From positions 10,416,001-10,480,000 of the forward strand of contig OX597843.1 in assembly GCA_951406725.2 (NCBI GenBank): a stretch of DNA of 64,000 bases, given 5' to 3'. Shown one piece after another: positions 9,013-60,103 of this stretch. The translations under genes were made by a program, and so were the position numbers. Source of the DNA: Octopus vulgaris. Its lineage: Eukaryota. Below the pieces are notes generated by a model that ran no database searches, was not told the origin of the DNA, and saw only the letters and a program-made list of their open reading frames with translations. Numbering within the stretch: position 1 is the first letter of the stretch; each line of letters begins with the position of its first letter.

Positions 9013-9095
<83 letters not shown>

Positions 9096-14170: not shown

Positions 14171-14404
14171 GAACCCGACAGGACGTTACTTTGACTTATT
14201 CATTGATATTCAAAAACGAAACGTGAGTTTTTTTGTCTGAAATAGTGTTGTTGAATTGAAAGTTAGTAGTTTATTGTTGCTGTGTTAATATTGTTATTTT
14301 GTGTCTTTTCAATAAGACGGTTAGTGGCCTTCGCGCGAAGGTTGTGTACGTAGTTCCCCCCCCGTGGGGGAATTATTGTGTGCCTTCGTGTACGAAACAC
14401 ATCC

Positions 14405-14435
<31 letters not shown>

Positions 14436-14461
14436 TTTCTACTAACGGCTGCAAAGCCAGA

Positions 14462-15875
14462 ATGTCTTTGGAAGGCAGTGAATGCAAACTGGAAGGAAAA
14501 TTCGAAATGGATTTCCCCATTACCTATTCACCCATCTCAGGTGATGAAGAATCTCAAACCTCGGGTGAGAGAAGCACGCCGGCGGTGACACCGGAAAAAG
14601 AATCGGCGGTAACGCCAGAACAAAAGGCCCCAACAAAGAAGTTTGCGGAAGTTGTTGGACGCAAACAGAAAGATATAGATATAGAAAACCTAGAGAAATA
14701 TGAAGACCTTCTAAAGAAAGAAGGAAATGAAATTGCAGTGAAAAAAGATATGGAAAAAAAGGAAGAGATAGAAAAGAAAAAGAATTATATACAAGACATA
14801 TAGCACGACTACAAAAAGCATACAAAAAGTGGAAGAATGCAAAATAGAGGAGTGCCTGAAGACAATCAGAAAAGATATCACTTATATAAACAGAGGAAGA
14901 CGGTACGGAACAGTAGAAGTGAGGTTCAGAACAGAAGAAATAGCTAAGAAGCTATCCACAGAACCTCAGAAAGCGGGAAATCTAGTCCTTCTACCCTTGT
15001 ACAAAGGAAGAAGGACTTCAAAGATAGTAATGAGAAATATTCCCCCAGAGGCAGACGCCTCATGCCTGGTGGCGGCAGTGATGCTGGGCCTGAAAGAAAA
15101 AATCAACATCCTCCAAGCTACAGTGGAGGAGGAGGGATTTTGGCAGGGCCAGATCATAACAATGGCTATACAAGCAGAGGCCCAGACTCTGGAAGAAATA
15201 CCAGAGGTGCTGAGGCTAGATGAGGAGGAGCGAGTTCTAGTATTTGTAGAAGGAAGAAAACCGAGGTGCTTCGGCTGCGGAAAGAAGGGGCACGTGAGAG
15301 CGGAGTGTCAACCAAAACCGCAGGTAGAAGAACCATCGGAGAAAGAAGAAACGGAGGAAAAAAAGGAAACCAAAGAGGTGGAAAAAGCTGCAGAAAAGGA
15401 AAAAGAAAACGAAAAAGAGGAGGGGTGGTCTAAAGTTACCAAAAAAAAACGGAAAACTGAAACCACCCCTCAAGAAGAAGAAAACCTAAAGAAAAGGAAA
15501 GAGGTTACTTCTTCATTTATGGCCATTAAGGCTACTAACAACAGACTTGTCAATGTGTTGGCAGCCATGGCCAAGGTGGAACGTATAAGGAAGATGAAAG
15601 ACTTCATCATATATAAAATAGGCCGGAAGGACTACAGGAGGATAAAATCCGAGTTCTTCCACGACGTGGGCCCTCTGAGACTGGACATGTCTCCATATCT
15701 ATACGAGGGCCTACGTCGGACTCCCCCACGAGCCAAAGAAAAAAAAATGAAGAAGAAGGCGAAACCGCCGAAAAAGCCAAACTACCGATATAAGGTAAGT
15801 GATGAACTACATTTGTGTTGGTTGTTTAAATGTGCGCGGCCTGGGATCAAGCGGGAAGCAAGGTCGCTTCCTTAA
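14462..15875 (+). CDS. ORF1 gag-like nucleic-acid-binding protein, ~470 aa (one +1 A frameshift near 14780)
   Basis: Starts MSLEGSECK; zinc knuckle CFGCGKKGHVRAEC (CX2CX4HX4C) followed by E/K-rich tail, typical of Tx1 ORF1. Confidence 0.85.
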
Positions 15876-18800: not shown

Positions 18801-19195
18801 GATGCGGGCGGGATAGGGAAACCGTCCCGCACGCTATTGTTCATTGTTCGGACGTGTCTGAGGTGTGGGTTTATGCCGAACAGCTGTTGTCAAGCACACG
18901 AAGAGTACAGCTGTCGACTGAGTGTATTAAAAAAATTGACCCACCAGATTTCCTCGCGAAAGAAGGTAAGACTTGTTTTCTCGTTGTGGTAGCAATTGCG
19001 AAGGAGGTGATATGGAAGACGAGAATGAAAGGTATACGGTCAGGCAAGTTCATATCCGGCCCTGGGTTGATGAACTACTTCATCTACCACCTGAAAAGGA
19101 AGATAGGGCTGGAGAGAAAATGCCTGACTAAAAGAGTGTATGAAGAACGATGGAAGGATGTAGCACGGAAGTTGAGAATGGATGACACCACATAA
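15802..19195 (+). pseudogene. ORF2 copy 1, APE-RT, with two homopolymer frameshifts (~16040, ~18629); may be sequencing errors
   Basis: Same as the intact ORF2 except T5>T4 and G5>G4. Confidence 0.85.
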
Positions 19196-19681
19196 ATGTA
19201 GATCAAAACGAAACCAAAAGTATCAGTGGTGAGGCGGGGCTCGTGGGGTCCGAGCTGAACCCGCCCCCACTCCACCTGTAGTGTCTTCCGGTCTGTTTTT
19301 TCTCATTCGATTTTTATAATTTTTGCAATTTTTGTAAATTTTTGAAATTTTTAAACTCATACTTTTGTAACCTCATACGTGAATCTGACCCCACATCAGG
19401 TTGTATTGTCCCCTCTTTGTTGGCCCCTTGTGGGTAATAATAAAAGAGAACCCGACAGGACGTTACTTTGACTTATTCATTGATATTCAAAAACGAAACG
19501 TGAGTTTTTTTGTCTGAAATAGTGTTGTGGAATTGAAAGTTAGTAGTTTATTGTTGCTGTGTTAATATTGTTATTTTGTGTCTTTTCAATAAGACGGTTA
19601 GTGGCCTTCGCGCGAAGGTTGTGTACGTAGTTCCCCCCCCGTGGGGGAATTATTGTGTGCCTTCGTGTACGAAACACATCC

Positions 19682-19713
<32 letters not shown>

Positions 19714-19739
19714 TTTCTACTAACGGCTGCAAAGCCAGA

Positions 19740-21150
19740 ATGTCTTTGGAAGGCAGTGAATGCAAACTGGAAGGAAAATTCGAAATGGATTTCCCCATTA
19801 CCTATTCACCCATCTCAGGTGATGAAGAATCTCAAACCTCGGGTGAGAGAAGCACGCCGGCGGTGACACCGGAAAAAGAATCGGCGGTAACGCCAGAACA
19901 AAAGGCCCCAACAAAGAAGTTTGCGGAAGTTGTTGGACGCAAACAGAAAGATATAGATATAGAAAACCTAGAGAAATATGAAGACCTTCTAAAGAAAGAA
20001 GGAAATGAAATTGCAGTGAAAAAAGATATGGAAAAAAAGGAAGAGATAGAAAAGAAAAGAATTATATACAAGACATATAGCACGACTACAAAAAGCATAC
20101 AAAAAGTGGAAGAATGCAAAATAGAGGAGTGCCTGAAGACAATCAGAAAAGATATCACTTATATAAACAGAGGAAGACGGTTCGGAACAGTAGAAGTGAG
20201 GTTCAGAACCGAAGAAATAGCTAAGAAGCTATCCACAGAACCTCAGAAAGCGGAAATCTAGTCCTTCTACCCTTGTACAAAGGAAGAAGGACTTCAAAGA
20301 TAGTAATGAGAAATATTCCCCCAGAGGCAGACGCCTCATGCCTGGTGGCGGCAGTGATGCTGGGCCTGAAAGAAAAAATCAACATCCTCCAAGCTACAGT
20401 GGAGGAGGAGGGATTTTGGCAGGGCCAGATCATAACAATGGCTATACAAGCAGAGGCCCAGACTCTGGAAGAAATACCAGAGGTGCTGAGGCTAGATGAG
20501 GAGGAGCGAGTTCTAGTATTTGTAGAAGGAAGAAAACCGAGGTGCTTCGGCTGCGGAAAGAAGGGGCACGTGAGAGCGGAGTGTCAACCGAAACCGCAGG
20601 CAGAAGAACCGTCGGAGAAAGAAGAAACGGAGGAAAAAAAGGAAACCAAAGAGGTGGAAAAAGCTGCAGAAAAGGAAAAAGAAAACGAAAAAGAGGAGGG
20701 GTGGTCTAAAGTTACCAAAAAAAAACGGAAAACTGAAACCACCCCTCAAGAAGAAGAAAACCTAAAGAAAAGGAAAGAGGTTACTTCTTCATTTATGGCC
20801 ATTAAGGCTACTAACAACAGACTTGTCAATGTGTTGGCAGCCATGGCCAAGGTGGAACGTATAAGGAAGATGAAAGACTTCATCATATATAAAATAGGCC
20901 GGAAGGACTACAGGAGGATAAAATCCGAGTTCTTCCACGACGTGGGCCCTCTGAGACTGGACATGTCTCCATATCTATACGAGGGCCTACGTCGGACTCC
21001 CCACGAGCCAAAGAAAAAAAAATGAAGAAGAAGGCGAAACCGCCGAAAAAGCCAAACTACCGATATAAGGTAAGTGATGAACTACATTTGTGTTGGTTGT
21101 TTAAATGTGCGCGGCCTGGGATCAAGCGGGAAGCAAGGTCGCTTCCTTAA
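19740..21150 (+). CDS. ORF1 copy 2 (frameshifts near 20252 and 21000)
   Basis: Homologous to copy 1 ORF1; CCHC knuckle intact. Confidence 0.75.
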
Positions 21151-24100
21151 TGATATCAGGTCGCGCAATTTGGATGTTATTGTTGCTACAGAAACCCGGT
21201 TAAAGGGGCCAAGAGATCTACTCCCACTGTTTGACGGCTACGAGAGTTTTTTCTCTCCTGGCAGTCCTGCAGGCGGGAGTGGGGTGTTGGTCCTACTAAA
21301 AAGAAACCGGGTTTTTGAGAAAAAGTTAATTTTTTCAGACCCAGAAGGTAGGCTGGTCGTCATGGATTTGACGTTCAGTAACGGTAAAGTTATCAGACTG
21401 GTTGCAATTTACGCACCCTGCAGTAATAATGGGCAAAGTGATTATTATCGTGATCTAGAGAACTTTCTCGGTACTTCGCATTCAATAGTTGTGCTAGGAG
21501 ACTTTAACACAATTTGCAAAGCGGATGTAGATTGTGTTGGCTCGAATGATAGAAAAGGTAACACATGCTTCCTGGAACTGCTAAGCCGCTTTGAGCTAGC
21601 AGATCCTTATAGGTTGGAATTTCCGAACGCTCCATTGTGGACATGGTCAAACAGCGACGGATCTTCCAGGTCATACATAGATAGAATTCTAATTAGAAAG
21701 GTAGACAGTAAAATAGCTAAGCGTCCACAGTTTTACCCGATCAGCTACAGTGATCATAAAATGGTCACTTGTAAGCTTGACATAGATAAGGTTAGAAAGA
21801 GAGGATCCGGTTACTGGAAACTTAATACGTCCCTTTTGGCGATTAAGGAGTACAGAGACCGGATTAGGACCATAATTCAGAGGGCGCTGTCTGGTGCCAT
21901 CATTAATAACAAATGGTGGTACGCCCTCAAACGAGCCATCAAGTTTGAGTCTATTAGATATAGCATAGGAGTAGTGTCTAGAGAGGCTAGAAGGGAAACT
22001 ACTCTAGTTAAGGAATTAGAGGAAGCCATGAAAACTGGCTCTGCGGCTCAGGTGGCGTCCAAGAGACTGGTGTTAAACCAGCACCTCGAGGCCAAACACA
22101 TGGGTTGCATTGTCAGGGCTAGAATCCGTCATATGGGATGTGAAGGAATCAACGCCGTGAGATGGGCCCGAGTGGTGGAAGCCCGGAATGGCAACGATGC
22201 CACGATTCGATCTTTGAAGAACCAACAAGGTGAGTTGATAGACGAACCCGAGGAGATGTGTGAGGCCTTTCAGGAGCACTTCGCTCAGCTTTTCGGTGAG
22301 TGCGGCGGACTGGATAGGAGGAGGGCCTTTACGGACCTACTCGACGGGCTGCCGCGCTTATCGGGGCGAGATGCGGAGGGCTGTGAAGGGCCAATCACGC
22401 CTGAGGAGGTGGTGGAGGCAATGGCGGACTGCGGCGCGGGCAAGGCGCCGGGTTTGGATGGTCTACCCTACGAGTTATATAAGAATATGCCAGACTTGTT
22501 CGGGCACCTACTGGCGGAAGTCTATGCGAACTGGCAGCAGAACGGGTTGATACCCAGATCTGTGCGCCGGGGAGTGGTGACTCTCGTCAGAAAGGACCCG
22601 AGCAAGGGGGAGTGCATTGATAATTTCAGGCCCATCACTCTGCTAAACACAGAGTTGAAGATTTTGGCCAAAGTGTTATCGAAAAGATTGGCGCGTGTCG
22701 CGGATGGTCTGATCGGGGAGGCACAGACATGTGCCGTTCCGGGCAGAACCATTCAGGATAATCTCCATCTAATGCGGTACACTATAGAGGGGTTTAATAG
22801 TGATTCTGGCAAGGGTGGGGCACTGGTCCATTTAGACCAATCCAAAGCTTTTGATAGGGTCGACCATCGTTACCTGGTGTCTGCTCTGGCACAGTTCGGG
22901 CTGGGCCTTGGCTTCCTCAGGTGGATTATCCAAATTTACGACAACATCGACTCGGTAGTTCGGGTGAACGGCTTCTTGTCGAAGCCGTTCAAAATCAAAC
23001 GCTCGGTTCGTCAAGGGTGTCCGCTCTCCCCGCTTTTGTACGTGATGGCTCTTGAGCCATTACTGCGAAAACTGAGCGGCATCCCGAGACAGCCAGGTAA
23101 TGGAAAATCAGTGTCAGCGTACGCGGACGACATCACCATCATCGTGACCGAAATGGACCACCTATGTAAAGTAGGCAAGGCCATAGAGGATTACGAGACG
23201 GTGACAGGAGCAAAAGTTAATCGCGAAAAGTCAGTCGGCTTGCAACTCGGCACCTGGAGAGGCAAGTCGATGCCTCCTGACAGCGTCGTGGGACGTTGGA
23301 CGGAGGGTCCGATTAAACTGCTAGGGGTCTGGTTCGGTCCAGACCTCCAAATAGAGAAGAATTGGGGCGAGGTAACGAGCAAGGTGGCTGCAGTAGCCAA
23401 GACCTGGTCTAGGCGGTGGCTATCCTTGAAAGGGAGGGCGGAGGTGGCCAATGTGTTTATCGCATCGGTTATCATCTACCGCCTTTCCGTCGTTCCATGC
23501 CCTGATTCGTGGTTGACCAAGTTGGAAAGACAGCTCTTCTACTTCCTGTGGAAGGGCAGGAAACCACTTGTGAAACGCTCTACTTGCTGTCAACAACCGT
23601 TAAAGGGTGGGCTAGGGATGCCTTGGCTGATGATGCGCAGACATGCGCTGAGGTTAAGACATCTGTGGCTCTACCTGGATGGTGAACGGGTGTGGTCTCC
23701 GTTAGCAAAACTGATGTTTCCCAAGTTCACTAGTTTCGGTGGATGGGAAACCTGGTTGAATCGTAGATCGAAACTCGGTACATGGTATACGGAGTGTCGA
23801 AAGGCCCTCCTGCTATTCCGTCGCTCGGGCAACGCCTGCGGTGGGGGTTCCACCACATTCTTCTATAGAGGGTTGGTAGAGGCGGAATGTGAAGACACCT
23901 TGGGGGAAACCCTGGGTCTCGACGATAATCAGCTGGCTAGTCTGTTCCGACGTACGTTCGGGCCGAAGACTCTGGACAACTTCCAGAAGTCTCTGGCATG
24001 GCAATGCTACAGAGGAGCTCTACCTGTTCGGGATAAACTCGCAAGGCACGGTGGCCAAGACAGTCCGATGTGTCCAAGATGCGGGCGGGATAGGGAAACC

Positions 24101-24472
24101 GTCCCGCACGCTATTGTTCATTGTTCGGACGTGTCTGAGGTGTGGGTTTATGCCGAACAGCTGTTGTCAAGCACACGAAGAGTACAGCTGTCGACTGAGT
24201 GTATTAAAAAAATTGACCCACCAGATTTCCTCGCGAAAGAAGGTAAGACTTGTTTTCTCGTTGTGGTAGCAATTGCGAAGGAGGTGATATGGAAGACGAG
24301 AATGAAAGGTATACGGTCAGGCAAGTTCATATCCGGCCCTGGGTTGATGAACTACTTCATCTACCACCTGAAAAGGAAGATAGGGCTGGAGAGAAAATGC
24401 CTGACTAAAAGAGTGTATGAAGAACGATGGAAGGATGTAGCACGGAAGTTGAGAATGGATGACACCACATAA
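21077..24472 (+). CDS. ORF2: APE endonuclease, reverse transcriptase and C-terminal CCHC finger, 1131 aa from ATG
   Basis: APE motifs LNVRGL, ETRL, IYAP, GDFN, IDRI, SDH; Tx1-type GSGYWKLNTSLL; RT motifs KAPGLDG, FRPITLLN, DQSKAFD, QGCPLSP, YADD; CPRC..ETVPHAIVHC. Confidence 0.97.
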   Translation: MNYICVGCLNVRGLGSSGKQGRFLNDIRSRNLDVIVATETRLKGPRDLLPLFDGYESFFSPGSPAGGSGVLVLLKRNRVFEKKLIFSDPEGRLVVMDLTFSNGKVIRLVAIYAPCSNNGQSDYYRDLENFLGTSHSIVVLGDFNTICKADVDCVGSNDRKGNTCFLELLSRFELADPYRLEFPNAPLWTWSNSDGSSRSYIDRILIRKVDSKIAKRPQFYPISYSDHKMVTCKLDIDKVRKRGSGYWKLNTSLLAIKEYRDRIRTIIQRALSGAIINNKWWYALKRAIKFESIRYSIGVVSREARRETTLVKELEEAMKTGSAAQVASKRLVLNQHLEAKHMGCIVRARIRHMGCEGINAVRWARVVEARNGNDATIRSLKNQQGELIDEPEEMCEAFQEHFAQLFGECGGLDRRRAFTDLLDGLPRLSGRDAEGCEGPITPEEVVEAMADCGAGKAPGLDGLPYELYKNMPDLFGHLLAEVYANWQQNGLIPRSVRRGVVTLVRKDPSKGECIDNFRPITLLNTELKILAKVLSKRLARVADGLIGEAQTCAVPGRTIQDNLHLMRYTIEGFNSDSGKGGALVHLDQSKAFDRVDHRYLVSALAQFGLGLGFLRWIIQIYDNIDSVVRVNGFLSKPFKIKRSVRQGCPLSPLLYVMALEPLLRKLSGIPRQPGNGKSVSAYADDITIIVTEMDHLCKVGKAIEDYETVTGAKVNREKSVGLQLGTWRGKSMPPDSVVGRWTEGPIKLLGVWFGPDLQIEKNWGEVTSKVAAVAKTWSRRWLSLKGRAEVANVFIASVIIYRLSVVPCPDSWLTKLERQLFYFLWKGRKPLVKRSTCCQQPLKGGLGMPWLMMRRHALRLRHLWLYLDGERVWSPLAKLMFPKFTSFGGWETWLNRRSKLGTWYTECRKALLLFRRSGNACGGGSTTFFYRGLVEAECEDTLGETLGLDDNQLASLFRRTFGPKTLDNFQKSLAWQCYRGALPVRDKLARHGGQDSPMCPRCGRDRETVPHAIVHCSDVSEVWVYAEQLLSSTRRVQLSTECIKKIDPPDFLAKEGKTCFLVVVAIAKEVIWKTRMKGIRSGKFISGPGLMNYFIYHLKRKIGLERKCLTKRVYEERWKDVARKLRMDDTT

Positions 24473-25013
24473 ATGTAGATCAAAACGAAACCAAAAGTAT
24501 CAGTGGTGAGGCGGGGCTCGTGGGGTCCGAGCTGAACCCGCCCCCACTCCACCTGTAGTGTCTTCCGGTCTGTTTTTTCTCATTCGATTTTTATAATTTT
24601 TGCAATTTTTGTAAATTTTTGAAATTTTTAAACTCATACTTTTGTAACCTCATACGTGAATCTGACCCCACATCAGGTTGTATTGTCCCCTCTTTGTTGG
24701 CCCCTTGTGGGTAATAATAAAAGAGAACCCGACAGGACGTTACTTTGACTTATTCATTGATATTCAAAAACGAAACGTGAGTTTTTTTGTCTGAAATAGT
24801 GTTGTTGAATTGAAAGTTAGTAGTTTATTGTTGCTGTGTTAATATTGTTATTTTGTGTCTTTTCAATAAGACGGTTAGTGGCCTTCGCGCGAAGGTTGTG
24901 TACGTAGTTCCCCCCCGTGGGGGAATTATTGTGTGCCTTCGTGTACGAAACACATCCAAAAAAAAAAAAAAAAAAAAAAAAAAATATTTTCTACTAACGG
25001 CTGCAAAGCCAGA

Positions 25014-26426
25014 ATGTCTTTGGAAGGCAGTGAATGCAAACTGGAAGGAAAATTCGAAATGGATTTCCCCATTACCTATTCACCCATCTCAGGTGATGAA
25101 GAATCTCAAACCTCGGGTGAGAGAAGCACGCCGGCGGTGACACCGGAAAAAGAATCGGCGGTAACGCCAGAACAAAAGGCCCCAACAAAGAAGTTTGCGG
25201 AAGTTGTTGGACGCAAACAGAAAGATATAGATATAGAAAACCTAGAGAAATATGAAGACCTTCTAAAGAAAGAAGGAAATGAAATTGCAGTGAAAAAAGA
25301 TATGGAAAAAAAGGAAGAGATAGAAAAGAAAAGAATTATATACAAGACATACAGCACGACTACAAAAAGCATACAAAAAGTGGAAGAATGCAAAATAGAG
25401 GAGTGCCTGAAGACAATCAGAAAAGATATCACTTATATAAACAGAGGAAGACGGTTCGGAACAGTAGAAGTGAGGTTCAGAACAGAAGAAATAGCTAAGA
25501 AGCTATCCACAGAACCTCAGAAAGCGGAAATCTAGTCCTTCTACCCTTGTACAAAGGAAGAAGGACTTCAAAGATAGTAATGAGAAATATTCCCCCAGAG
25601 GCAGACGCCTCATGCCTGGTGGCGGCAGTGATGCTGGGCCTGAAAGAAAAAATCAACATCCTCCAAGCTACAGTGGAGGAGGAGGGATTTTGGCAGGGCC
25701 AGATCATAACAATGGCTATACAAGCAGAGGCCCAGACTCTGGAAGAAATACCAGAGGTGCTGAGGCTAGATGAGGAGGAGCGAGTTCTAGTATTTGTAGA
25801 AGGAAGAAAACCGAGGTGCTTCGGCTGCGGAAAGAAGGGGCACGTGAGAGCGGAGTGTCAACCGAAACCGCAGGTAGAAGAACCGTCGGAGAAAGAAGAA
25901 ACGGAGGAAAAAAAGGAAACCAAAGAGGTGGAAAAAGCTGCAGAAAAGGAAAAAGAAAACGAAAAAGAGGAGGGGTGGTCTAAAGTTACCAAAAAAAAAC
26001 GGAAAACTGAAACCACCCCTCAAGAAGAAGAAAACCTAAAGAAAAGGAAAGAGGTTACTTCTTCATTTATGGCCATTAAGGCTACTAACAACAGACTTGT
26101 CAATGTGTTGGCAGCCATGGCCAAGGTGGAACGTATAAGGAAGATGAAAGACTTCATCATATATAAAATAGGCCGGAAGGACTACAGGAGGATAAAATCC
26201 GAGTTCTTCCACGACGTGGGCCCTCTGAGACTGGACATGTCTCCATATCTATACGAGGGCCTACGTCGGACTCCCCCACGAGCCAAAGAAAAAAAAAATG
26301 AAGAAGAAGGCGAAACCGCCGAAAAAGCCAAACTACCGATATAAGGTAAGTGATGAACTACATTTGTGTTGGTTGTTTAAATGTGCGCGGCCTGGGATCA
26401 AGCGGGAAGCAAGGTCGCTTCCTTAA
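25014..26426 (+). CDS. ORF1 copy 3 (frameshifts near 25527 and 26298)
   Basis: Homologous to copy 1 ORF1. Confidence 0.75.
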
Positions 26427-29400
26427 TGATATCAGGTCGCGCAATTTGGATGTTATTGTTGCTACAGAAACCCGGTTAAAGGGGCCAAGAGATCTACTCC
26501 CACTGTTTGACGGCTACGAGAGTTTTTTCTCTCCTGGCAGTCCTGCAGGCGGGAGTGGGGTGTTGGTCCTACTAAAAAGAAACCGGGTTTTTGAGAAAAA
26601 GTTAATTTTTTCAGACCCAGAAGGTAGGCTGGTCGTCATGGATTTGACGTTCAGTAACGGTAAAGTTATCAGACTGGTTGCAATTTACGCACCCTGCAGT
26701 AATAATGGGCAAAGTGATTATTATCGTGATCTAGAGAACTTTCTCGGTACTTCGCATTCAATAGTTGTGCTAGGAGACTTTAACACAATTTGCAAAGCGG
26801 ATGTAGATTGTGTTGGCTCGAATGATAGAAAAGGTAACACATGCTTCCTGGAACTGCTAAGCCGCTTTGAGCTAGCAGATCCTTATAGGTTGGAATTTCC
26901 GAACGCTCCATTGTGGACATGGTCAAACAGCGACGGATCTTCCAGGTCATACATAGATAGAATTCTAATTAGAAAGGTAGACAGTAAAATAGCTAAGCGT
27001 CCACAGTTTTACCCGATCAGCTACAGTGATCATAAAATGGTCACTTGTAAGCTTGACATAGATAAGGTTAGAAAGAGAGGATCCGGTTACTGGAAACTTA
27101 ATACGTCCCTTTTGGCGATTAAGGAGTACAGAGACCGGATTAGGACCATAATTCAGAGGGCGCTGTCTGGTGCCATCATTAATAACAAATGGTGGTACGC
27201 CCTCAAACGAGCCATCAAGTTTGAGTCTATTAGATATAGCATAGGAGTAGTGTCTAGAGAGGCTAGAAGGGAAACTACTCTAGTTAAGGAATTAGAGGAA
27301 GCCATGAAAACTGGCTCTGCGGCTCAGGTGGCGTCCAAGAGACTGGTGTTAAACCAGCACCTCGAGGCCAAACACATGGGCTGCATTGTCAGGGCTAGAA
27401 TCCGTCATATGGGATGTGAAGGAATCAACGCCGTGAGATGGGCCCGAGTGGTGGAAGCCCGGAATGGCAACGATGCCACGATTCGATCTTTGAAGAACCA
27501 ACAAGGTGAGTTGATAGACGAACCCGAGGAGATGTGTGAGGCCTTTCAGGAGCACTTCGCTCAGCTTTTCGGTGAGTGCGGCGGACTGGATAGGAGGAGG
27601 GCCTTTACGGACCTACTCGACGGGCTGCCGCGCTTATCGGGGCGAGATGCGGAGGGCTGTGAAGGGCCAATCACGCCTGAGGAGGTGGTGGAGGCAATGG
27701 CGGACTGCGGCGCGGGCAAGGCGCCGGGTTTGGATGGTCTACCCTACGAGTTATATAAGAATATGCCAGACTTGTTCGGGCACCTACTGGCGGAAGTCTA
27801 TGCGAACTGGCAGCAGAACGGGTTGATACCCAGATCTGTGCGCCGGGGAGTGGTGACTCTCGTCAGAAAGGACCCGAGCAAGGGGGAGTGCATTGATAAT
27901 TTCAGGCCCATCACTCTGCTAAACACAGAGTTGAAGATTTTGGCCAAAGTGTTATCGAAAAGATTGGCGCGTGTCGCGGATGGTCTGATCGGGGAGGCAC
28001 AGACATGTGCCGTTCCGGGCAGAACCATTCAGGATAATCTCCATCTAATGCGGTACACTATAGAGGGGTTTAATAGTGATTCTGGCAAGGGTGGGGCACT
28101 GGTCCATTTAGACCAATCCAAAGCTTTTGATAGGGTCGACCATCGTTACCTGGTGTCTGCTCTGGCACAGTTCGGGCTGGGCCTTGGCTTCCTCAGGTGG
28201 ATTATCCAAATTTACGACAACATCGACTCGGTAGTTCGGGTGAACGGCTTCTTGTCGAAGCCGTTCAAAATCAAACGCTCGGTTCGTCAAGGGTGTCCGC
28301 TCTCCCCGCTTTTGTACGTGATGGCTCTTGAGCCATTACTGCGAAAACTGAGCGGCATCCCGAGACAGCCAGGTAATGGAAAATCAGTGTCAGCGTACGC
28401 GGACGACATCACCATCATCGTGACCGAAATGGACCACCTATGTAAAGTAGGCAAGGCCATAGAGGATTACGAGACGGTGACAGGAGCAAAAGTTAATCGC
28501 GAAAAGTCAGTCGGCTTGCAACTCGGCACCTGGAGAGGCAAGTCGATGCCTCCTGACAGCGTCGTGGGACGTTGGACGGAGGGTCCGATTAAACTGCTAG
28601 GGGTCTGGTTCGGTCCAGACCTCCAAATAGAGAAGAATTGGGGCGAGGTAACGAGCAAGGTGGCTGCAGTAGCCAAGACCTGGTCTAGGCGGTGGCTATC
28701 CTTGAAAGGGAGGGCGGAGGTGGCCAATGTGTTTATCGCATCGGTTATCATCTACCGCCTTTCCGTCGTTCCATGCCCTGATTCGTGGTTGACCAAGTTG
28801 GAAAGACAGCTCTTCTACTTCCTGTGGAAGGGCAGGAAACCACTTGTGAAACGCTCTACTTGCTGTCAACAACCGTTAAAGGGTGGGCTAGGGATGCCTT
28901 GGCTGATGATGCGCAGACATGCGCTGAGGTTAAGACATCTGTGGCTCTACCTGGATGGTGAACGGGTGTGGTCTCCGTTAGCAAAACTGATGTTTCCCAA
29001 GTTCACTAGTTTCGGTGGATGGGAAACCTGGTTGAATCGTAGATCGAAACTCGGTACATGGTATACGGAGTGTCGAAAGGCCCTCCTGCTATTCCGTCGC
29101 TCGGGCAACGCCTGCGGTGGGGGTTCCACCACATTCTTCTATAGAGGGTTGGTAGAGGCGGAATGTGAAGACACCTTGGGGGAAACCCTGGGTCTCGACG
29201 ATAATCAGCTGGCTAGTCTGTTCCGACGTACGTTCGGGCCGAAGACTCTGGACAACTTCCAGAAGTCTCTGGCATGGCAATGCTACAGAGGAGCTCTACC
29301 TGTTCGGGATAAACTCGCAAGGCACGGTGGCCAAGACAGTCCGATGTGTCCAAGATGCGGGCGGGATAGGGAAACCGTCCCGCACGCTATTGTTCATTGT

Positions 29401-29748
29401 TCGGACGTGTCTGAGGTGTGGGTTTATGCCGAACAGCTGTTGTCAAGCACACGAAGAGTACAGCTGTCGACTGAGTGTATTAAAAAAATTGACCCACCAG
29501 ATTTCCTCGCGAAAGAAGGTAAGACTTGTTTTCTCGTTGTGGTAGCAATTGCGAAGGAGGTGATATGGAAGACGAGAATGAAAGGTATACGGTCAGGCAA
29601 GTTCATATCCGGCCCTGGGTTGATGAATTACTTCATCTACCACCTGAAAAGGAAGATAGGGCTGGAGAGAAAATGCCTGACTAAAAGAGTGTATGAAGAA
29701 CGATGGAAGGATGTAGCACGGAAGTTGAGAATGGATGACACCATATAA
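26353..29748 (+). CDS. ORF2 APE-RT-CCHC, intact
   Basis: Uninterrupted ORF with the same motifs as copy 2. Confidence 0.97.
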   Translation: MNYICVGCLNVRGLGSSGKQGRFLNDIRSRNLDVIVATETRLKGPRDLLPLFDGYESFFSPGSPAGGSGVLVLLKRNRVFEKKLIFSDPEGRLVVMDLTFSNGKVIRLVAIYAPCSNNGQSDYYRDLENFLGTSHSIVVLGDFNTICKADVDCVGSNDRKGNTCFLELLSRFELADPYRLEFPNAPLWTWSNSDGSSRSYIDRILIRKVDSKIAKRPQFYPISYSDHKMVTCKLDIDKVRKRGSGYWKLNTSLLAIKEYRDRIRTIIQRALSGAIINNKWWYALKRAIKFESIRYSIGVVSREARRETTLVKELEEAMKTGSAAQVASKRLVLNQHLEAKHMGCIVRARIRHMGCEGINAVRWARVVEARNGNDATIRSLKNQQGELIDEPEEMCEAFQEHFAQLFGECGGLDRRRAFTDLLDGLPRLSGRDAEGCEGPITPEEVVEAMADCGAGKAPGLDGLPYELYKNMPDLFGHLLAEVYANWQQNGLIPRSVRRGVVTLVRKDPSKGECIDNFRPITLLNTELKILAKVLSKRLARVADGLIGEAQTCAVPGRTIQDNLHLMRYTIEGFNSDSGKGGALVHLDQSKAFDRVDHRYLVSALAQFGLGLGFLRWIIQIYDNIDSVVRVNGFLSKPFKIKRSVRQGCPLSPLLYVMALEPLLRKLSGIPRQPGNGKSVSAYADDITIIVTEMDHLCKVGKAIEDYETVTGAKVNREKSVGLQLGTWRGKSMPPDSVVGRWTEGPIKLLGVWFGPDLQIEKNWGEVTSKVAAVAKTWSRRWLSLKGRAEVANVFIASVIIYRLSVVPCPDSWLTKLERQLFYFLWKGRKPLVKRSTCCQQPLKGGLGMPWLMMRRHALRLRHLWLYLDGERVWSPLAKLMFPKFTSFGGWETWLNRRSKLGTWYTECRKALLLFRRSGNACGGGSTTFFYRGLVEAECEDTLGETLGLDDNQLASLFRRTFGPKTLDNFQKSLAWQCYRGALPVRDKLARHGGQDSPMCPRCGRDRETVPHAIVHCSDVSEVWVYAEQLLSSTRRVQLSTECIKKIDPPDFLAKEGKTCFLVVVAIAKEVIWKTRMKGIRSGKFISGPGLMNYFIYHLKRKIGLERKCLTKRVYEERWKDVARKLRMDDTI

Positions 29749-30290
29749 ATGTAGATCAAAACGAAACCAAAAGTATCAGTGGTGAGGCGGGGCTCGTGGG
29801 GTCCGAGCTGAACCCGCCCCCACTCCACCTGTAGTGTCTTCCGGTCTGTTTTTTCTCATTCGATTTTTATAATTTTTGCAATTTTTGTAAATTTTTGAAA
29901 TTTTTAAACTCATACTTTTGTAACCTCATACGTGAATCTGACCCCACATCAGGTTGTATTGTCCCCTCTTTGTTGGCCCCTTGTGGGTAATAATAAAAGA
30001 GAACACCGATAGGACGTTACTTTGACTTATTCATTGATTCTCAAAAACGAAACGTGAGTTTTTTGTCTGAAATAGTGTTGTTAAATTGAAAGTTAATAGT
30101 TTATTGTTGCTGTGTTAATATTGTTATTTTGTGTCTTTTCAATAAGACGGTTAGTGGCCTTCGCGCGAAGGTTGTGTACGTAGTTCCCCCCCGTGGGGGA
30201 ATTATTGTGTGCCTTCGTGTACGAAACACATTCAAAAACAAAAAAAAAAAAAAAAAAAAAATATTTTCTACTAACGGCTGCAAAGCCAGA

Positions 30291-31702
30291 ATGTCTTTGG
30301 AAGGCAGTGAATGCAAACTGGAAGGAAAATTCGAAATGGATTTCCCCATTACCTATTCACCCATCTCAGGTGATGAAGAATCTCAAACCTCGGGTGAGAG
30401 AAGCACGCCGGCGGTGACACCGGAAAAAGAATCGGCGGTAACGCCAGGACAAAAGGCCCCAACAAAGAAGTTTGCGGAAGTTGTTGGACGCAAACAAAAA
30501 AATATAGATATAGAAAACCTAGAGAAATATGAAGACCTTCTAAAGAAAGAAGGAAATGAAATTGCAGTGAAAAAAGATATGGAAAAAAAGGAAGAGATAG
30601 AAAATAAAAGAATTATATACAAGACATACAGCATGACTACAAAAAGCATACAAAAAGTGGAAGAATGCAAAATAGAGGAGTGCCTGAAGACAATCAGAAA
30701 AGATATCACTTATATAAACAGAGGAAGGCGGTTCGGAACAGTAGAAGTGAGGTTCAGAACCGAAGAAATAGCTAAGAAGCTATCCACAGAACCTCAGAAA
30801 GCGGGAAATCTAGTCCTTCTACCCTTGTACAAAGGAAGAAGGACTTCAAAGATAGTAATGAGAAATATTCCCCCAGAGGCAGACGCCTCATGCCTGGTGG
30901 CGGCAGTGATGCTGGGCCTGAAAGAAAAATCAACATCCTCCAAGCTACAGTGGAGGAGGAGGGATTTTGGCAGGGCCAGATCATAACAATGGCTATACAA
31001 GCAGAGGCCCAGACTCTGGAAGAAATACCAGAGGTGCTGAGGCTAGATGAGGAGGAGCGAGTTCTAGTATTTGTAGAAGGAAGAAAACCGAGGTGCTTCG
31101 GCTGCGGAAAGAAGGGGCACGTGAGAGCGGAGTGTCAACCAAAACCGCAGGTAGAAGAACCGTCGGAGAAAGAAGAAACGGAGGAAAAAAAGGAAACCAA
31201 AGAGGTGGAAAAAGCTGCAGAAAAGGAAAAAGAAAACGAAAAAGAGGAGGGGTGGTCTAAAGTTACCAAAAAAAAACGGAAAACTGAAACCACCCCTCAA
31301 GAAGAAGAAAACCTAAAGAAAAGGAAAGAGGTTACTTCTTCATTTATGGCCATTAAGGCTACTAACAACAGACTTGTCAATGTGTTGGCAGCCATGGCCA
31401 AGGTGGAACGTATAAGGAAGATGAAAGACTTCATCATATATAAAATAGGCCGGAAGGACTACAGGAGGATAAAATCCGAGTTCTTCCACGACGTGGGCCC
31501 TCTGAGACTGGACATGTCTCCATATCTATACGAGGGCCTACGTCGGACTCCCCCACGAGCCAAAGAAAAAAAAATGAAGAAGAAGGCGAAACCGCCGAAA
31601 AAGCCAAACTACCGATATAAGGTAAGTGATGAACTACATTTGTGTTGGTTGTTTAAATGTGCGCGGCCTGGGATCAAGCGGGAAGCAAGGTCGCTTCCTT
31701 AA
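30291..31702 (+). CDS. ORF1 copy 4 (one -1 A frameshift near 30929)
   Basis: Homologous to copy 1 ORF1. Confidence 0.8.
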
Positions 31703-34700
31703 TGATATCAGGTCGCGCAATTTGGATGTTATTGTTGCTACAGAAACCCGGTTAAAGGGGCCAAGAGATCTACTCCCACTGTTTGACGGCTACGAGAGTT
31801 TTTTCTCTCCTGGCAGTCCTGCAGGCGGGAGTGGGGTGTTGGTCCTACTAAAAAGAAACCGGGTTTTTGAGAAAAAGTTAATTTTTTCAGACCCAGAAGG
31901 TAGGCTGGTCGTCATGGATTTGACGTTCAGTAACGGTAAAGTTATCAGACTGGTTGCAATTTACGCACCCTGCAGTAATAATGGGCAAAGTGATTATTAT
32001 CGTGATCTAGAGAACTTTCTCGGTACTTCGCATTCAATAGTTGTGCTAGGAGACTTTAACACAATTTGCAAAGCGGATGTAGATTGTGTTGGCTCGAATG
32101 ATAGAAAAGGTAACACATGCTTCCTGGAACTGCTAAGCCGCTTTGAGCTAGCAGATCCTTATAGGTTGGAATTTCCGAACGCTCCATTGTGGACATGGTC
32201 AAACAGCGACGGATCTTCCAGGTCATACATAGATAGAATTCTAATTAGAAAGGTAGACAGTAAAATAGCTAAGCGTCCACAGTTTTACCCGATCAGCTAC
32301 AGTGATCATAAAATGGTCACTTGTAAGCTTGACATAGATAAGGTTAGAAAGAGAGGATCCGGTTACTGGAAACTTAATACGTCCCTTTTGGCGATTAAGG
32401 AGTACAGAGACCGGATTAGGACCATAATTCAGAGGGCGCTGTCTGGTGCCATCATTAATAACAAATGGTGGTACGCCCTCAAACGAGCCATCAAGTTTGA
32501 GTCTATTAGATATAGCATAGGAGTAGTGTCTAGAGAGGCTAGAAGGGAAACTACTCTAGTTAAGGAATTAGAGGAAGCCATGAAAACTGGCTCTGCGGCT
32601 CAGGTGGCGTCCAAGAGACTGGTGTTAAACCAGCACCTCGAGGCCAAACACATGGGTTGCATTGTCAGGGCTAGAATCCGTCATATGGGATGTGAAGGAA
32701 TCAACGCCGTGAGATGGGCCCGAGTGGTGGAAGCCCGGAATGGCAACGATGCCACGATTCGATCTTTGAAGAACCAACAAGGTGAGTTGATAGACGAACC
32801 CGAGGAGATGTGTGAGGCCTTTCAGGAGCACTTCGCTCAGCTTTTCGGTGAGTGCGGCGGGCTGGATAGGAGGAGGGCCTTTACGGACCTACTCGACGGG
32901 CTGCCGCGCTTATCGGGGCGAGATGCGGAGGGCTGTGAAGGGCCAATCACGCCTGAGGAGGTGGTGGAGGCAATGGCGGACTGCGGCGCGGGCAAGGCGC
33001 CGGGTTTGGATGGTCTACCCTACGAGTTATATAAGAATATGCCAGACTTGTTCGGGCACCTACTGGCGGAAGTCTATGCGAACTGGCAGCAGAACGGGTT
33101 GATACCCAGATCTGTGCGCCGGGGAGTGGTGACTCTCGTCAGAAAGGACCCGAGCAAGGGGGAGTGCATTGATAATTTCAGGCCCATCACTCTGCTAAAC
33201 ACAGAGTTGAAGATTTTGGCCAAAGTGTTATCGAAAAGATTGGCGCGTGTCGCGGATGGTCTGATCGGGGAGGCACAGACATGTGCCGTTCCGGGCAGAA
33301 CCATTCAGGATAATCTCCATCTAATGCGGTACACTATAGAGGGGTTTAATAGTGATTCTGGCAAGGGTGGGGCACTGGTCCATTTAGACCAATCCAAAGC
33401 TTTTGATAGGGTCGACCATCGTTACCTGGTGTCTGCTCTGGCACAGTTCGGGCTGGGCCTTGGCTTCCTCAGGTGGATTATCCAAATTTACGACAACATC
33501 GACTCGGTAGTTCGGGTGAACGGCTTCTTGTCGAAGCCGTTCAAAATCAAACGCTCGGTTCGTCAAGGGTGTCCGCTCTCCCCGCTTTTGTACGTGATGG
33601 CTCTTGAGCCATTACTGCGAAAACTGAGCGGCATCCCGAGACAGCCAGGTAATGGAAAATCAGTGTCAGCGTACGCGGACGACATCACCATCATCGTGAC
33701 CGAAATGGACCACCTATGTAAAGTAGGCAAGGCCATAGAGGATTACGAGACGGTGACAGGAGCAAAAGTTAATCGCGAAAAGTCAGTCGGCTTGCAACTC
33801 GGCACCTGGAGAGGCAAGTCGATGCCTCCTGACAGCGTCGTGGGACGTTGGACGGAGGGTCCGATTAAACTGCTAGGGGTCTGGTTCGGTCCAGACCTCC
33901 AAATAGAGAAGAATTGGGGCGAGGTAACGAGCAAGGTGGCTGCAGTAGCCAAGACCTGGTCTAGGCGGTGGCTATCCTTGAAAGGGAGGGCGGAGGTGGC
34001 CAATGTGTTTATCGCATCGGTTATCATCTACCGCCTTTCCGTCGTTCCATGCCCTGATTCGTGGTTGACCAAGTTGGAAAGACAGCTCTTCTACTTCCTG
34101 TGGAAGGGCAGGAAACCACTTGTGAAACGCTCTACTTGCTGTCAACAACCGTTAAAGGGTGGGCTAGGGATGCCTTGGCTGATGATGCGCAGACATGCGC
34201 TGAGGTTAAGACATCTGTGGCTCTACCTGGATGGTGAACGGGTGTGGTCTCCGTTAGCAAAACTGATGTTTCCCAAGTTCACTAGTTTCGGTGGATGGGA
34301 AACCTGGTTGAATCGTAGATCGAAACTCGGTACATGGTATACGGAGTGTCGAAAGGCCCTCCTGCTATTCCGTCGCTCGGGCAACGCCTGCGGTGGGGGT
34401 TCCACCACATTCTTCTATAGAGGGTTGGTAGAGGCGGAATGTGAAGACACCTTGGGGGAAACCCTGGGTCTCGACGATAATCAGCTGGCTAGTCTGTTCC
34501 GACGTACGTTCGGGCCGAAGACTCTGGACAACTTCCAGAAGTCTCTGGCATGGCAATGCTACAGAGGAGCTCTACCTGTTCGGGATAAACTCGCAAGGCA
34601 CGGTGGCCAAGACAGTCCGATGTGTCCAAGATGCGGGCGGGATAGGGAAACCGTCCCGCACGCTATTGTTCATTGTTCGGACGTGTCTGAGGTGTGGGTT

Positions 34701-35024
34701 TATGCCGAACAGCTGTTGTCAAGCACACGAAGAGTACAGCTGTCGACTGAGTGTATTAAAAAAATTGACCCACCAGATTTCCTCGCGAAAGAAGGTAAGA
34801 CTTGTTTTCTCGTTGTGGTAGCAATTGCGAAGGAGGTGATATGGAAGACGAGAATGAAAGGTATACGGTCAGGCAAGTTCATATCCGGCCCTGGGTTGAT
34901 GAACTACTTCATCTACCACCTGAAAAGGAAGATAGGGCTGGAGAGAAAATGCCTGACTAAAAGAGTGTATGAAGAACGATGGAAGGATGTAGCACGGAAG
35001 TTGAGAATGGATGACACCATATAA
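31629..35024 (+). CDS. ORF2 APE-RT-CCHC, intact
   Basis: Uninterrupted ORF with all catalytic motifs. Confidence 0.97.
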   Translation: MNYICVGCLNVRGLGSSGKQGRFLNDIRSRNLDVIVATETRLKGPRDLLPLFDGYESFFSPGSPAGGSGVLVLLKRNRVFEKKLIFSDPEGRLVVMDLTFSNGKVIRLVAIYAPCSNNGQSDYYRDLENFLGTSHSIVVLGDFNTICKADVDCVGSNDRKGNTCFLELLSRFELADPYRLEFPNAPLWTWSNSDGSSRSYIDRILIRKVDSKIAKRPQFYPISYSDHKMVTCKLDIDKVRKRGSGYWKLNTSLLAIKEYRDRIRTIIQRALSGAIINNKWWYALKRAIKFESIRYSIGVVSREARRETTLVKELEEAMKTGSAAQVASKRLVLNQHLEAKHMGCIVRARIRHMGCEGINAVRWARVVEARNGNDATIRSLKNQQGELIDEPEEMCEAFQEHFAQLFGECGGLDRRRAFTDLLDGLPRLSGRDAEGCEGPITPEEVVEAMADCGAGKAPGLDGLPYELYKNMPDLFGHLLAEVYANWQQNGLIPRSVRRGVVTLVRKDPSKGECIDNFRPITLLNTELKILAKVLSKRLARVADGLIGEAQTCAVPGRTIQDNLHLMRYTIEGFNSDSGKGGALVHLDQSKAFDRVDHRYLVSALAQFGLGLGFLRWIIQIYDNIDSVVRVNGFLSKPFKIKRSVRQGCPLSPLLYVMALEPLLRKLSGIPRQPGNGKSVSAYADDITIIVTEMDHLCKVGKAIEDYETVTGAKVNREKSVGLQLGTWRGKSMPPDSVVGRWTEGPIKLLGVWFGPDLQIEKNWGEVTSKVAAVAKTWSRRWLSLKGRAEVANVFIASVIIYRLSVVPCPDSWLTKLERQLFYFLWKGRKPLVKRSTCCQQPLKGGLGMPWLMMRRHALRLRHLWLYLDGERVWSPLAKLMFPKFTSFGGWETWLNRRSKLGTWYTECRKALLLFRRSGNACGGGSTTFFYRGLVEAECEDTLGETLGLDDNQLASLFRRTFGPKTLDNFQKSLAWQCYRGALPVRDKLARHGGQDSPMCPRCGRDRETVPHAIVHCSDVSEVWVYAEQLLSSTRRVQLSTECIKKIDPPDFLAKEGKTCFLVVVAIAKEVIWKTRMKGIRSGKFISGPGLMNYFIYHLKRKIGLERKCLTKRVYEERWKDVARKLRMDDTI

Positions 35025-35468
35025 ATGTAGATCAAAACGAAACCAAAAGTATCAGTGGTGAGGCGGGGCTCGTGGGGTCCGAGCTGAACCCGCCCCCACT
35101 CCACCTGTAGTGTCTTCCGGTCTGTTTTTTCTCATTCGATTTTTATAATTTTTGCAATTTTTGTAAATTTTTGAAATTTTTAAACTCATACTTTTGTAAC
35201 CTCATACGTGAATCTGACCCCACATCAGGTTGTATTGTCCCCTCTTTGTTGGCCCCTTGTGGGTAATAATAAAAGAAAATCACCATATAGTGCCTTACTG
35301 CTTTCTGCTGGATTTTACCTCGAGATAGGAACCCTGAGGAAGGAGGGCTGAATTTCGAATACTTCGTACAACAAACGGCTGCAGGTTAGGAAAAAAAATT
35401 TAATCGCCTCTTTCAATTTAGGTTTTTATTTTTCATGCTTATATTCGTATTTCATTGTTATGTTTATA

Positions 35469-37883: not shown

Positions 37884-37983
37884 NNNNNNNNNNNNNNNNN
37901 NNNNNNNNNNNNNNNNNNNNNNNNNNNNNNNNNNNNNNNNNNNNNNNNNNNNNNNNNNNNNNNNNNNNNNNNNNNNNNNNNNN
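37884..37983. other. Assembly gap (100 N)
   Basis: Run of N. Confidence 1.
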
Positions 37984-39170: not shown

Positions 39171-39335
39171 ATTTCTTTACTGCCCACAAGGGGCTAAACG
39201 CAGAGGGGACAAACAAGGACAGACAAATGGGTTAAGTCGATTACATCGACCCCAGTGCGTAACTGGTACTTAATTTATCGACCCCGAAAGGATGAAAGGC
39301 AAAGTCGACCTCGGTGGAATTTGAACTCAGAACTT
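39171..39335 (-). mobile_element. SINE type B, 5'-truncated, Tx1-like tail
   Basis: Reverse complement of the 8535-8760 family 3' half, including GCCCCTTGTGGGC..AAAGAAAT. Confidence 0.85.
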
Positions 39336-40539
39336 ATAAGCTAGTGTTCCAGCCGTGACCATCCGTGCTGAAGTAAAGGAATAGGTGTGTCGGGGAGAAG
39401 CCTGTTTCTCAACAGTATGGCTACAAGTTCAATCCCACTGCATGGCACCTTGGACATGTGTCTTCTACTATAGCCCTAGGCTGACCAAAGCCTTGTGAGT
39501 GGACTTGTTAGATGGAATTCAAAGAAGCTTGTCAAATATATACATAGTATAGATGTGTGTGTGTCTATATATATGTATGTATGTATATATGTATATGGAT
39601 ATATAATATGTATATCCATATGTATATGGATGTGTCTATATTATATATATAAGTACAAAGTGAGATAGGGGTTATGAGTGTAACCCACTATGGGATATCA
39701 GTTATCCAATATACTGCCAGTAAAGTACCCAGAAGGCAAATACATAAATGCTAAGAATTGCAATGCAATTAATTCATTTATTGTATTAGAGGGTCGAAGG
39801 TAAAATATTTTACCTCAAATTCATAATACAAATAAGAAAATGTAGGAATAGATTCCTTTCAATCATCGACTTACAGATATTACCAATTCATATTATATTA
39901 TATTTATCCCAGTGCGTAACTGGTACTTAATTTATCGACCCCGAGAGGATGAAAGGCAAAGTCGACCTTGGCGGAATTTGAACTCAGTACTTTGCCCTGT
40001 GTGCTAACGTTTCTGCCAGCTCCCCGCCTTTTCACCATACCTGAGACAATCCCTCTTAACATTTTCTTGCTTTATTCTCTCTACCTCTGTCCTCTGTCTC
40101 TCTACATCAGTCTCTACCTCCTACCTTGCTGTCTGGCTCACTGGCTGTCTGGTTCACTGGCTGTCTGACTGGCTGGCTGTCTGACTGGCTGGCTGTCTGA
40201 CTGGCTGTCTGTCTGTGTGTCCCTGCCATGTGTCACTGTGCTCCCTTCAGATAAATTTCATTGCCTTCTCTCTCCCTTTCCTTTTCTCCTCACACTATAT
40301 TACTCTATGTTTCTGTCTGTCTGTCTGTCTCTCTCACTCTCTCTCTCAATTCTACTCTTTCTCTCTCACTCCCTAACTCTACCTACTCTTCTCTCTCTCT
40401 CATCATCTCTCTGCCTCTCAACATTCCTGTCTCTCTTTCTCTTCATTCCTCAGTTTCTCTTTCTCTCTCCCCCCTCTCTCACTATCTCTGTCTCTCCATC
40501 TATTTATGTTCCCCTATCATTATCTCTCCTTTTCTCTCT

Positions 40540-45765: not shown

Positions 45766-46170
45766 TGCTGGTAGAAACGTTAGCACGCTGGGCGAAATGC
45801 GTAGCCGTATTTCGTCTGTCGTTACGTTGTGAGTTCAAATTCCGCCAAGGCCGACTTTGCCTTTCATCCTTTCGGGGTCGATAAATAAAGTACCAGTTAT
45901 GCACTGCGGTCGATGTAAACGACTTAATCCCTTTGTCTGTCCTTGTTTGTCCCCTCTGTGTTTAGCCCCTTGTGGGTAGTAAAGAAATAGGTATTTCGTC
46001 TGCCGTTACGTTCTGAGTTCAAATTCTGCCGAGGTTGACTTTGCCTTTTCATCCTTTCGGGGTCGATAAATAAAGTACCAGTTATGCACTGGGGGTCGAT
46101 GTAAACGACTTAATCCCTTTGTCTGTCCTTGTTTGTCCCCTCCATGCTTAGCCCCTTATGGGCAATAAAG

Positions 46171-46174
<4 letters not shown>
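45766..46174 (+). mobile_element. SINE type B tandem dimer (second unit 5'-truncated), both with Tx1-like tail
   Basis: Tails end at ~45988 and ~46174; second unit starts at GTATTTCGTCTG. Confidence 0.85.
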
Positions 46175-48760: not shown

Positions 48761-49149
48761 TTCAAAACAACAATCCCGGAAAATATTTGTTATTGGTTTG
48801 CTTCTTCCTCAAACAGCTGGCATCTCCTTGTACATACCATTCTCAATGGCATCCAGGAACAGCTGGCCATTCTGGGAAGAAGATGTCACCCAAACAAAAC
48901 AAAGTACTTAAAAACAATCGCCCTTCAGACTCATTTGTTCTTTGTTTAACCATTCATCTCATTCCCACACATCTACATTCAAACAACAAACAGGTGGCCA
49001 CTTCTTGTAACTGATCACTCCCCAAGACTCATGTTTTTGTCCAACCCATGGAATTCTAGTAGACAAATAAACAACTAGATGCCTGTTTAGACAAGCACAG
49101 ACAAAGACACACACACCATGCATTGATATATATATATATATATATACAA

Positions 49150-49385
49150 GGTGGCGAGCTGGCAGAAATGTTAGCACGCCAGGTGACGAAATAATGCGTA
49201 GCCGTATTTCGTCTGCCGTTATGTTCTGAGTTCAAATTCCGCCGAGGTCGACTTTGCCTCTCATTCTTTCGGGGTTGATAAATAAAGTACCAGTTTCGCA
49301 CTAGGGTCGATGTGATTGACTTAATCGTTTTGTCTGTCCTTGTTTGTCCCCTCTATGTTTAGCCCCTTGTGAGCAATAAAGAAAT
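49150..49385 (+). mobile_element. SINE type B with Tx1-like tail
   Basis: Head GGTGGCGAGCTGGCAGAA; tail GCCCCTTGTGAGCAATAAAGAAAT. Confidence 0.85.
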
Positions 49386-59982: not shown

Positions 59983-60103
59983 ACCTAGCATTGTCTCGCA
60001 GCACACCAGTGTGCCACAGCATGCTGGTTGTGGAGCACTGTTCTATTAGAGCCACTGTGTCACCACACAAACAATTAGCTCCCACAATGACTATTATAAC
60101 TAA

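Follow-up and report, generated by a model that had tools for sequence, protein, structure and literature searches.

A long interspersed element (LINE) and a family of short interspersed elements (SINEs) in the genome of Octopus vulgaris end in the same 3' tail, and the LINE is placed by its reverse transcriptase in the Tx1 group. Both lie within a stretch of 64,000 nucleotides (contig OX597843.1 of assembly GCA_951406725.2, positions 10,416,001 to 10,480,000 of the forward strand), which is called the window below and whose first letter is position 1. The match between the LINE end and the ends of five SINE copies is real and far above chance, and the two elements constitute a well-supported candidate LINE-SINE pair, showing at the level of sequence the feature by which stringent pairs are recognised. 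The sharing of a tail between a LINE and a SINE is itself a textbook principle; what is new is Tx1 as the partner clade, and this in an animal. The tail is probably a recognition site for the protein encoded by the second open reading frame (ORF2) of a Tx1 lineage, acquired by the SINE through a template switch.

The shared 3' tail

When the LINE end region (35020-35300) was used as a BLASTN query against the 64,000-nt window, nucleotides 35230-35269 aligned with SINE ends at 45943-45982 (87.8% over 41 columns, E 6e-7), 8714-8749 (89.2% over 37 columns, E 2e-6), 49340-49379 (85.4%, E 8e-6) and, at 82.9% and E 3e-4 each, 46129-46168 and 39216-39177 (minus strand). Local alignment of the LINE 3' untranslated region (UTR) with each SINE copy gave scores of 43-53, against means of ~17 and maxima of 28-36 for shuffled sequence, and for each of the five copies the observed score was equalled in 0/2000 two-base-block shuffles. 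An initial annotation of this DNA, made from the letters alone, had proposed that the LINE end aligns with SINE ends, and with five such ends at 83-89% identity this is now established. A 14-nt core of the tail, allowed at most 2 mismatches, occurs at 10 sites in the window, all of them at the ends of the five LINE units and of the five SINE copies. The shared stretch is terminal in both elements, and the five SINE copies stop exactly at the tail. The features concerned are the following.

35230..35276, plus strand: 3' tail shared with the SINE, here in the last unit of the Tx1-like LINE array; ends in three TAA units and AAGA, without poly(A)
35207..35219, plus strand: weaker upstream homology, compared by eye; the LINE matches SINE positions 8701-8713 at 9/13 nt, a contig from another run at 12/13
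8536..8759, plus strand: SINE B copy 1, complete, composed of a tRNA-like head, the shared body and the Tx1-like tail
45767..46174, plus strand: SINE B copies 2 and 3, a head-to-tail dimer at a TA-rich site; copy 3 is 5'-truncated, both have the Tx1-like tail
49149..49385, plus strand: SINE B copy 4, full length; 12-bp TA-rich duplication with 1 mismatch
39171..39336, minus strand: SINE B copy 5, 5'-truncated; exact 8-bp target-site duplication
60095..60535, minus strand: two SINEs in which this head and body are followed by tail 2; tail swap at one point

The LINE version of the tail carries an extra ~10 nt that is missing from the SINE version, and the LINE-specific bases are fixed in five of the five array units described below. 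The hexamer AATAAA is present within the LINE tail. (A weak match of 58668-58700 to the right flank was dropped as low-complexity.)

The LINE array

The LINE that ends at 35276 is the last of five head-to-tail units that span 12838-35276, and the tail is thus present five times on the LINE side.

12838..14170, plus strand: array unit 1, truncated at its 5' end; adjoins a broken RTE-like LINE (minus strand)
14171..30000, plus strand: units 2, 3 and 4 of the array, all full length (5277, 5277 and 5276 bp), head to tail without spacer
30001..35276, plus strand: array unit 5, full length, 5276 bp
30090..31702, plus strand: unit 5, ORF1 region; split over two frames by a one-base shift within a run of A, one CCHC knuckle
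31626..35024, plus strand: unit 5, ORF2; 1132 aa between stops, with APE-type endonuclease, reverse transcriptase and zf-RVT
35054..35100, plus strand: GC-rich hairpin in the early 3' UTR (z -1.5, not significant), missing from the SINE

At the four junctions of the array the tail is joined directly to the next 5' end, with neither a spacer nor an A tract. The annotation's claim that the LINE ends without poly(A) is thereby borne out for DNA copies, for which these junctions, together with the dispersed ends described below, offer no long poly(A). It had also taken the SINE match as fixing the LINE end independently; the match alone does not do so, and it is the junctions and the dispersed ends that fix it. 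The bounds first given for the match, 35235..35280, need adjustment at both sides: the alignment itself stands, but it starts 5 nt earlier, at 35230, and the LINE ends ~4 nt earlier, at ~35276. Positions 35277-35280 are probably flank, because in each of the other four units the element stops at this base and the next unit follows directly.

Units 2-5 are 7-19 substitutions apart, and ORF2 is open in units 3-5. The differences private to unit 5 all fall within its first ~930 bp. No target-site duplication was found around the array. The layout, with 5' truncation confined to the first unit, is what would be expected from template jumping; unequal recombination or mixing during assembly stands as a rival to template jumping and may also have produced the array.

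Placement of the LINE in the Tx1 group

ORF2 has Pfam matches to PF03372, PF00078 and PF13966, and among proteins of solved structure the best relative is human L1 ORF2p (243 bits vs 89 for R2). Its closest named relative is a protein of Argonauta hians (63% over the reverse transcriptase region). The CCHC motif of ORF1 is visible at a level below the Pfam cut-off, and a fish ORF1 with such a motif is matched weakly (E 0.05); no paper linking ZCCHC3-type domains to Tx1 was found, and this link is not used as evidence. In a reverse transcriptase tree of 31 rows, which were picked from the retrieved homologues and whose anchors are functional and not named Repbase Tx1 sequences, the window ORF2 falls into one clade with two loci, L014 and L015 (97/95 support), separate from plant, fungal and two vertebrate (carp and lizard) L1-like proteins. 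The elements at these two loci are inserted inside U2 small nuclear RNA (snRNA) genes, and insertion in U2 snRNA genes is what defines Keno, a Tx1 family (PMC4494074; here and below, papers are cited for their accessible parts). A grouping of ORF2 with the carp and lizard proteins, specified once a quick tree had been seen, was rejected (p-AU 4e-8); the L1 label of these two proteins is inferred. The Tx1-like identity given in the initial annotation is therefore borne out by the ORF2 domains, the supported clade and the rejected grouping, and these support membership of the element in the Tx1 group, near U2-inserted Keno-like members.

A sister Tx1 lineage (39% amino acid identity; loci L081-L124 and L131) occurs as tandem arrays in contigs of a bacterial metagenome-assembled genome (MAG), contigs that most likely represent animal DNA binned in error. 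Across the 16 loci examined, repeat periods lie mostly at 6.4-6.9 kb, neighbouring units are 90-99.9% alike, and a tRNA or Rfam spacer was not found in the arrays scanned. Fish relatives are located at neighbouring locus tags. Tandem arrays may be a trait of the Tx1 lineage. A further Tx1-like element (L126), on a contig in a bacterial MAG, lies between matches to U1 snRNA (2107-2270 and 9032-9208) and is possibly a U1-associated family. Relatives of ORF2 were not found in viral contigs.

Tail-bearing copies in other sequencing runs

Contigs from four of 24 listed public runs (X1, X4, X6 and X12) were aligned to the junction between units 4 and 5 (29450-30450; 5276 is added to convert to unit 5), and 832, 491, 49 and 374 contigs, respectively, aligned at at least 90%. 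Many of these contigs are LINE relatives at 90-95% (344 of 832 in X1). Contigs running into repeats may be missing from these data, and the ends of RNA cannot be read from contigs; no listed run is recorded as RNA, which says nothing on expression, and X6 is guessed to be RNA. Details of loose ends, that is, of contig ends that leave the LINE, are given here for the 24 of 178 rows listed, and depth is not equivalent to copy number.

Loose ends that follow 29993 and 29998 number 15+14 in X1, 20+10 in X4 and 15+6 in X12, with 3 in X6. The flanks beyond these two positions are mixed (agreement ~0.5-0.6) and have no poly(A) consensus; the ends at 29993 continue AGAAA, like the SINE. The initial annotation had named dispersed Tx1 copies that extend past the tail as one observation that would count against it; this was not observed in the rows listed, and in all four runs copies stop at the tail. 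The bin that holds the tail is the deepest of 30 in 4/4 runs, the mid-3' UTR being 20- to 150-fold lower. The tail is entered at 29954/29955 from many, mostly T-rich sequences (15+7 in X1, 14 in X4, 5 in X6, 11 in X12), and in three contigs the early UTR is connected to the tail through a different middle part. This pattern is read as conservation of the tail across sibling LINE families whose UTRs have diverged elsewhere.

In one X4 contig, a loose end of 23 letters at 29947 matches the SINE just upstream of its tail at 12 of 13 nt (chance 2e-6 per register, in a comparison made post hoc), and one X6 contig agrees with this end. Because the window LINE matches at 9/13 here, and because the 29993 ends continue like the SINE, a sibling Tx1 subfamily is the likelier donor of the SINE tail; the X4 contig is too short to tell a LINE from a longer-tailed SINE.

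The hairpin at 35054-35100 is nearly as deeply covered in these runs as the tail (depth bin 29790-29823), and may be a second conserved cis element. Other head-to-tail joints have different 5' starts, leading from 29998 to 30040 in X4 and from 29997 to 30189 in X12. The eight bases that follow the last tail of the window (35277-35284) recur between two tandem tails in one X4 contig; they may reflect target preference, or one subfamily may have a longer end.

In searches of relatives, a profile of the six tails had no match below E 1 among 131 relative loci, and the exact tail pattern had none in metagenome contigs. A 12-nt look-alike in one locus (L008) was dropped, since it lies outside the top 12.

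One SINE body with exchangeable tails

SINE B is a non-coding element of ~225-240 bp, present in five copies on both strands that are ~90% alike. Box-like motifs and complementary head ends are seen in its head by eye only, and the head gave no tRNA match with ARAGORN or Rfam. The body is putatively of the Deu/Nin type, and the SINE is probably one of the tRNA-Deu families. Target-site duplications are recognisable in two of four insertions, the remaining two being one ambiguous and one absent; none was found around copy 1. Motif searches for the SINE in published supplements gave no match (in each, one file was outside the search).

Within the window, one SINE body motif is followed by three different tails, and the LINE-matching stretch starts just past the point at which tails are swapped. 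Only tail 1 matches the Tx1 UTR: tails 2 and 3 have no match to it (54-90 of 300 shuffles score as high), and tail 2 shows a marginal likeness to tail 1 (14/300). The swapping of tails on one SINE body favours transfer from LINE to SINE, and one body with several tails is a described pattern for tail-borrowing SINEs (PMC11481361, PMC4824008).

SINE A copies (e.g. 61450-61860) have a further tail type after the same body motif, and SINE A looks composite, with two SINEs joined by a TA/TG repeat. The two head-to-tail SINE dimers (45767-46174 and 60095-60535) have little or no spacer, in parallel to the LINE array.

Origin and function of the tail

Recognition of the tail by a Tx1 ORF2 protein, the explanation that is favoured here as probable, would work as follows. 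An octopod lineage of the Tx1 group would keep a conserved 3' tail of ~45-65 nt without long poly(A). An abundant SINE would have acquired this tail from a sibling Tx1 subfamily when reverse transcriptase started on the end of the LINE RNA and then switched template to SINE RNA, as in the template-switch model of SINE tail acquisition (PMC4824008). The SINE would then be mobilised in trans, being copied by the ORF2 protein of the same lineage through recognition of the tail, with target-primed reverse transcription starting at the short TAA/A-rich end. The head-to-tail tandems without spacer, which both the LINE and the SINE form in the window, are counted in favour of this explanation. A much broader version, in which a Tx1 lineage in an animal recognises its tail stringently and independently of poly(A), drove a large SINE expansion in octopus and template-jumped into LINE arrays and SINE dimers, is offered tentatively and is rather doubtful as a whole.

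Several observations weigh against tail recognition, and most of them are what would be expected if the tail, although of Tx1 origin, were carried passively, the SINE being copied through relaxed recognition of A/TA-rich ends or by another LINE (RTE, CR1 or Dong-R4), and the LINE keeping the motif for polyadenylation. The tail has no stable fold (z -0.1 to -1.4, not unusual), and two alternative short stems, 96-97% paired, show 0 two-sided changes in six sequences, which are too few to exclude a stem. Conservation in the five SINE copies is no higher in the tail (89.9%) than in the body (90.7%). The 3' flank begins TATA in all four SINE copies that have a free flank, whereas the listed LINE loose-end consensuses are A/T-rich without TATA, contigs that enter TA repeats possibly being lost; duplications of RTE-related SINEs start with T (PMC6007223). 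AATAAA lies in the tail, whose conservation may thus serve 3' end processing, and the Keno-like relatives end in A runs, unlike the array LINE. To these are added the listing of 24 of 178 loose-end rows and the limits of depth noted above, and the case of the crocodilian SINEU and Tx1-Mar (PMC4494074): like the octopus SINE, SINEU is proposed to be mobilised by Tx1, but it has snRNA heads and poly(A) tails and is linked to its LINE by target site and 5' heads, a shared 3' tail not being mentioned in the accessible text. Passive carriage is nevertheless unlikely. Conservation across siblings with differing UTR middles appears to reach far beyond the AATAAA hexamer, the array junctions and dispersed ends offer no long A run to a relaxed enzyme, and five independent SINE copies end exactly at the tail.

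The opposite direction of transfer, in which an ancestral octopod Tx1 element took the SINE 3' end by insertion or template switch and the SINE has its partner in another LINE clade, appears improbable. SINEs are very abundant in octopus, and the tail is missing from Tx1 relatives outside the octopods: among the 3' UTRs of 66 relatives the best score was 22, a value reached in 5/200 shuffles. This last result also counts against the favoured explanation, and because of it the direction of transfer rests on indirect evidence. That evidence is that the LINE match begins at the tail swap point of the SINE and the SINE body is not found in the LINE, and that the LINE tail has the extra ~10 nt missing from the SINE. 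In addition, the end of the RTE-like LINE in the window, the sole other LINE end compared, matches the SINE tail poorly (score 21, 12/300 shuffles as high).

That the tail is instead a DNA target, a site-specific Tx1 element inserting before the last 45 nt of the SINE so that SINE sequence follows every LINE copy, is very hard to credit: many Tx1 families do prefer repeats as target sequences (PMC4494074), mixed upstream sequences at one fixed point and mixed flanks after it would be expected here also, and head-to-tail joints recur in X4 and X12, but the LINE-specific tail bases are fixed in all five units, SINE-type insertions account for only ~6% (X1), 10% (X4) and 14% (X12) of the depth at the tail, with ~half in X6, 29930-30075 has no listed substitution site, and 0/4 full-length 5' ends in the window are preceded by the SINE body, which is also missing before the single dispersed 5' start listed for X1.

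Relation to known LINE-SINE pairs

Stringent pairs include eel UnaL2/UnaSINE, zebrafish ZfL2, and the Deu and Nin SINEs with CR1 or L2 tails (PMC3747384, Table 1; PMC4176376), and strict recognition of the tail by ORF2 has been established for zebrafish L2 elements (PMC4176376). The octopus pair resembles these in its short terminal homology between SINE and LINE 3' UTR and in its repeat-like end in place of poly(A). It differs in that its partner is of the Tx1 group, a clade missing from the table cited (PMC3747384, Table 1), and that stem-loop covariation is not seen in the six tail sequences compared.

The L1 clade also has such pairs, maize ZmSINE2/3 with LINE1-1_ZM and Chlamydomonas SINEX-3_CR with L1-1_CR; in a survey of 58 SINE/LINE pairs, three SINEs, from maize/sorghum and Chlamydomonas, had L1-clade tails (PMC3472496, PMC3747384). 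Here too a LINE of the L1/Tx1 superfamily shares its 3' end with a tRNA-type SINE. The maize pairs, however, show compensatory stem changes and the algal pair has poly(A), whereas the octopus case is from an animal and from the Tx1 branch. The same papers propose stringent recognition as the ancestral state, with relaxation in mammals, and note from SART1 that poly(A) and stringency are not mutually exclusive (PMC3472496, PMC3747384). Among the bivalve HCD-tRNA SINEs, as in octopus, one body carries exchangeable LINE tails (35-61 bp, 72-95% identity), and the octopus match falls within the range accepted for those pairs; the bivalve partners are CR1, CR1-Zenon, L2 and Nimb, and Tx1 and octopus go unmentioned in the accessible text (PMC11481361). 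Tx1 is likewise unmentioned in that of PMC5786205, and the LINE-derived regions seen in SINEBase are Bov-B, CR1 and two L2. The comparison also took in the accessible parts of PMC3899998 and PMC10088271. A published Tx1-tailed SINE was not found in the literature searched, whose scope did not extend to Repbase, Dfam and most subscription papers.

The octopus SINE families OK, OR1 and OR2 were reportedly described by Ohshima and Okada in 1994. They are cited in PMC4758252, PMC4824008 and SINEBase, where, in the parts accessible, the partner LINE is unnamed. SINE B may correspond to one of the three. Octopus SINEs belong mainly to the tRNA-Deu and tRNA-Core classes, and L1-Tx1 is also reported in octopus (PMC8967140). 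In the O. vulgaris annotation, tRNA-Deu SINEs occupy 60.9 Mb and L1-Tx1 elements 56.3 Mb, with no partner or tail given in the main text.

The window contains, in addition, a recent tandem duplication of ~3.7 kb (26-3605 and 3643-7398, 97-99% identity) and 100 N at 37884-37983.

Implications

If the tail is indeed recognised by a Tx1 ORF2 protein, stringent recognition in the L1/Tx1 superfamily would be extended from plants and a green alga to animals, and the idea that stringency is ancestral could be put to a direct test against the relaxed L1 of mammals. Since ORF2 is open in three units of the array, a reporter assay could serve to test the idea. A probable driver of part of the octopus SINE load would be identified as well.
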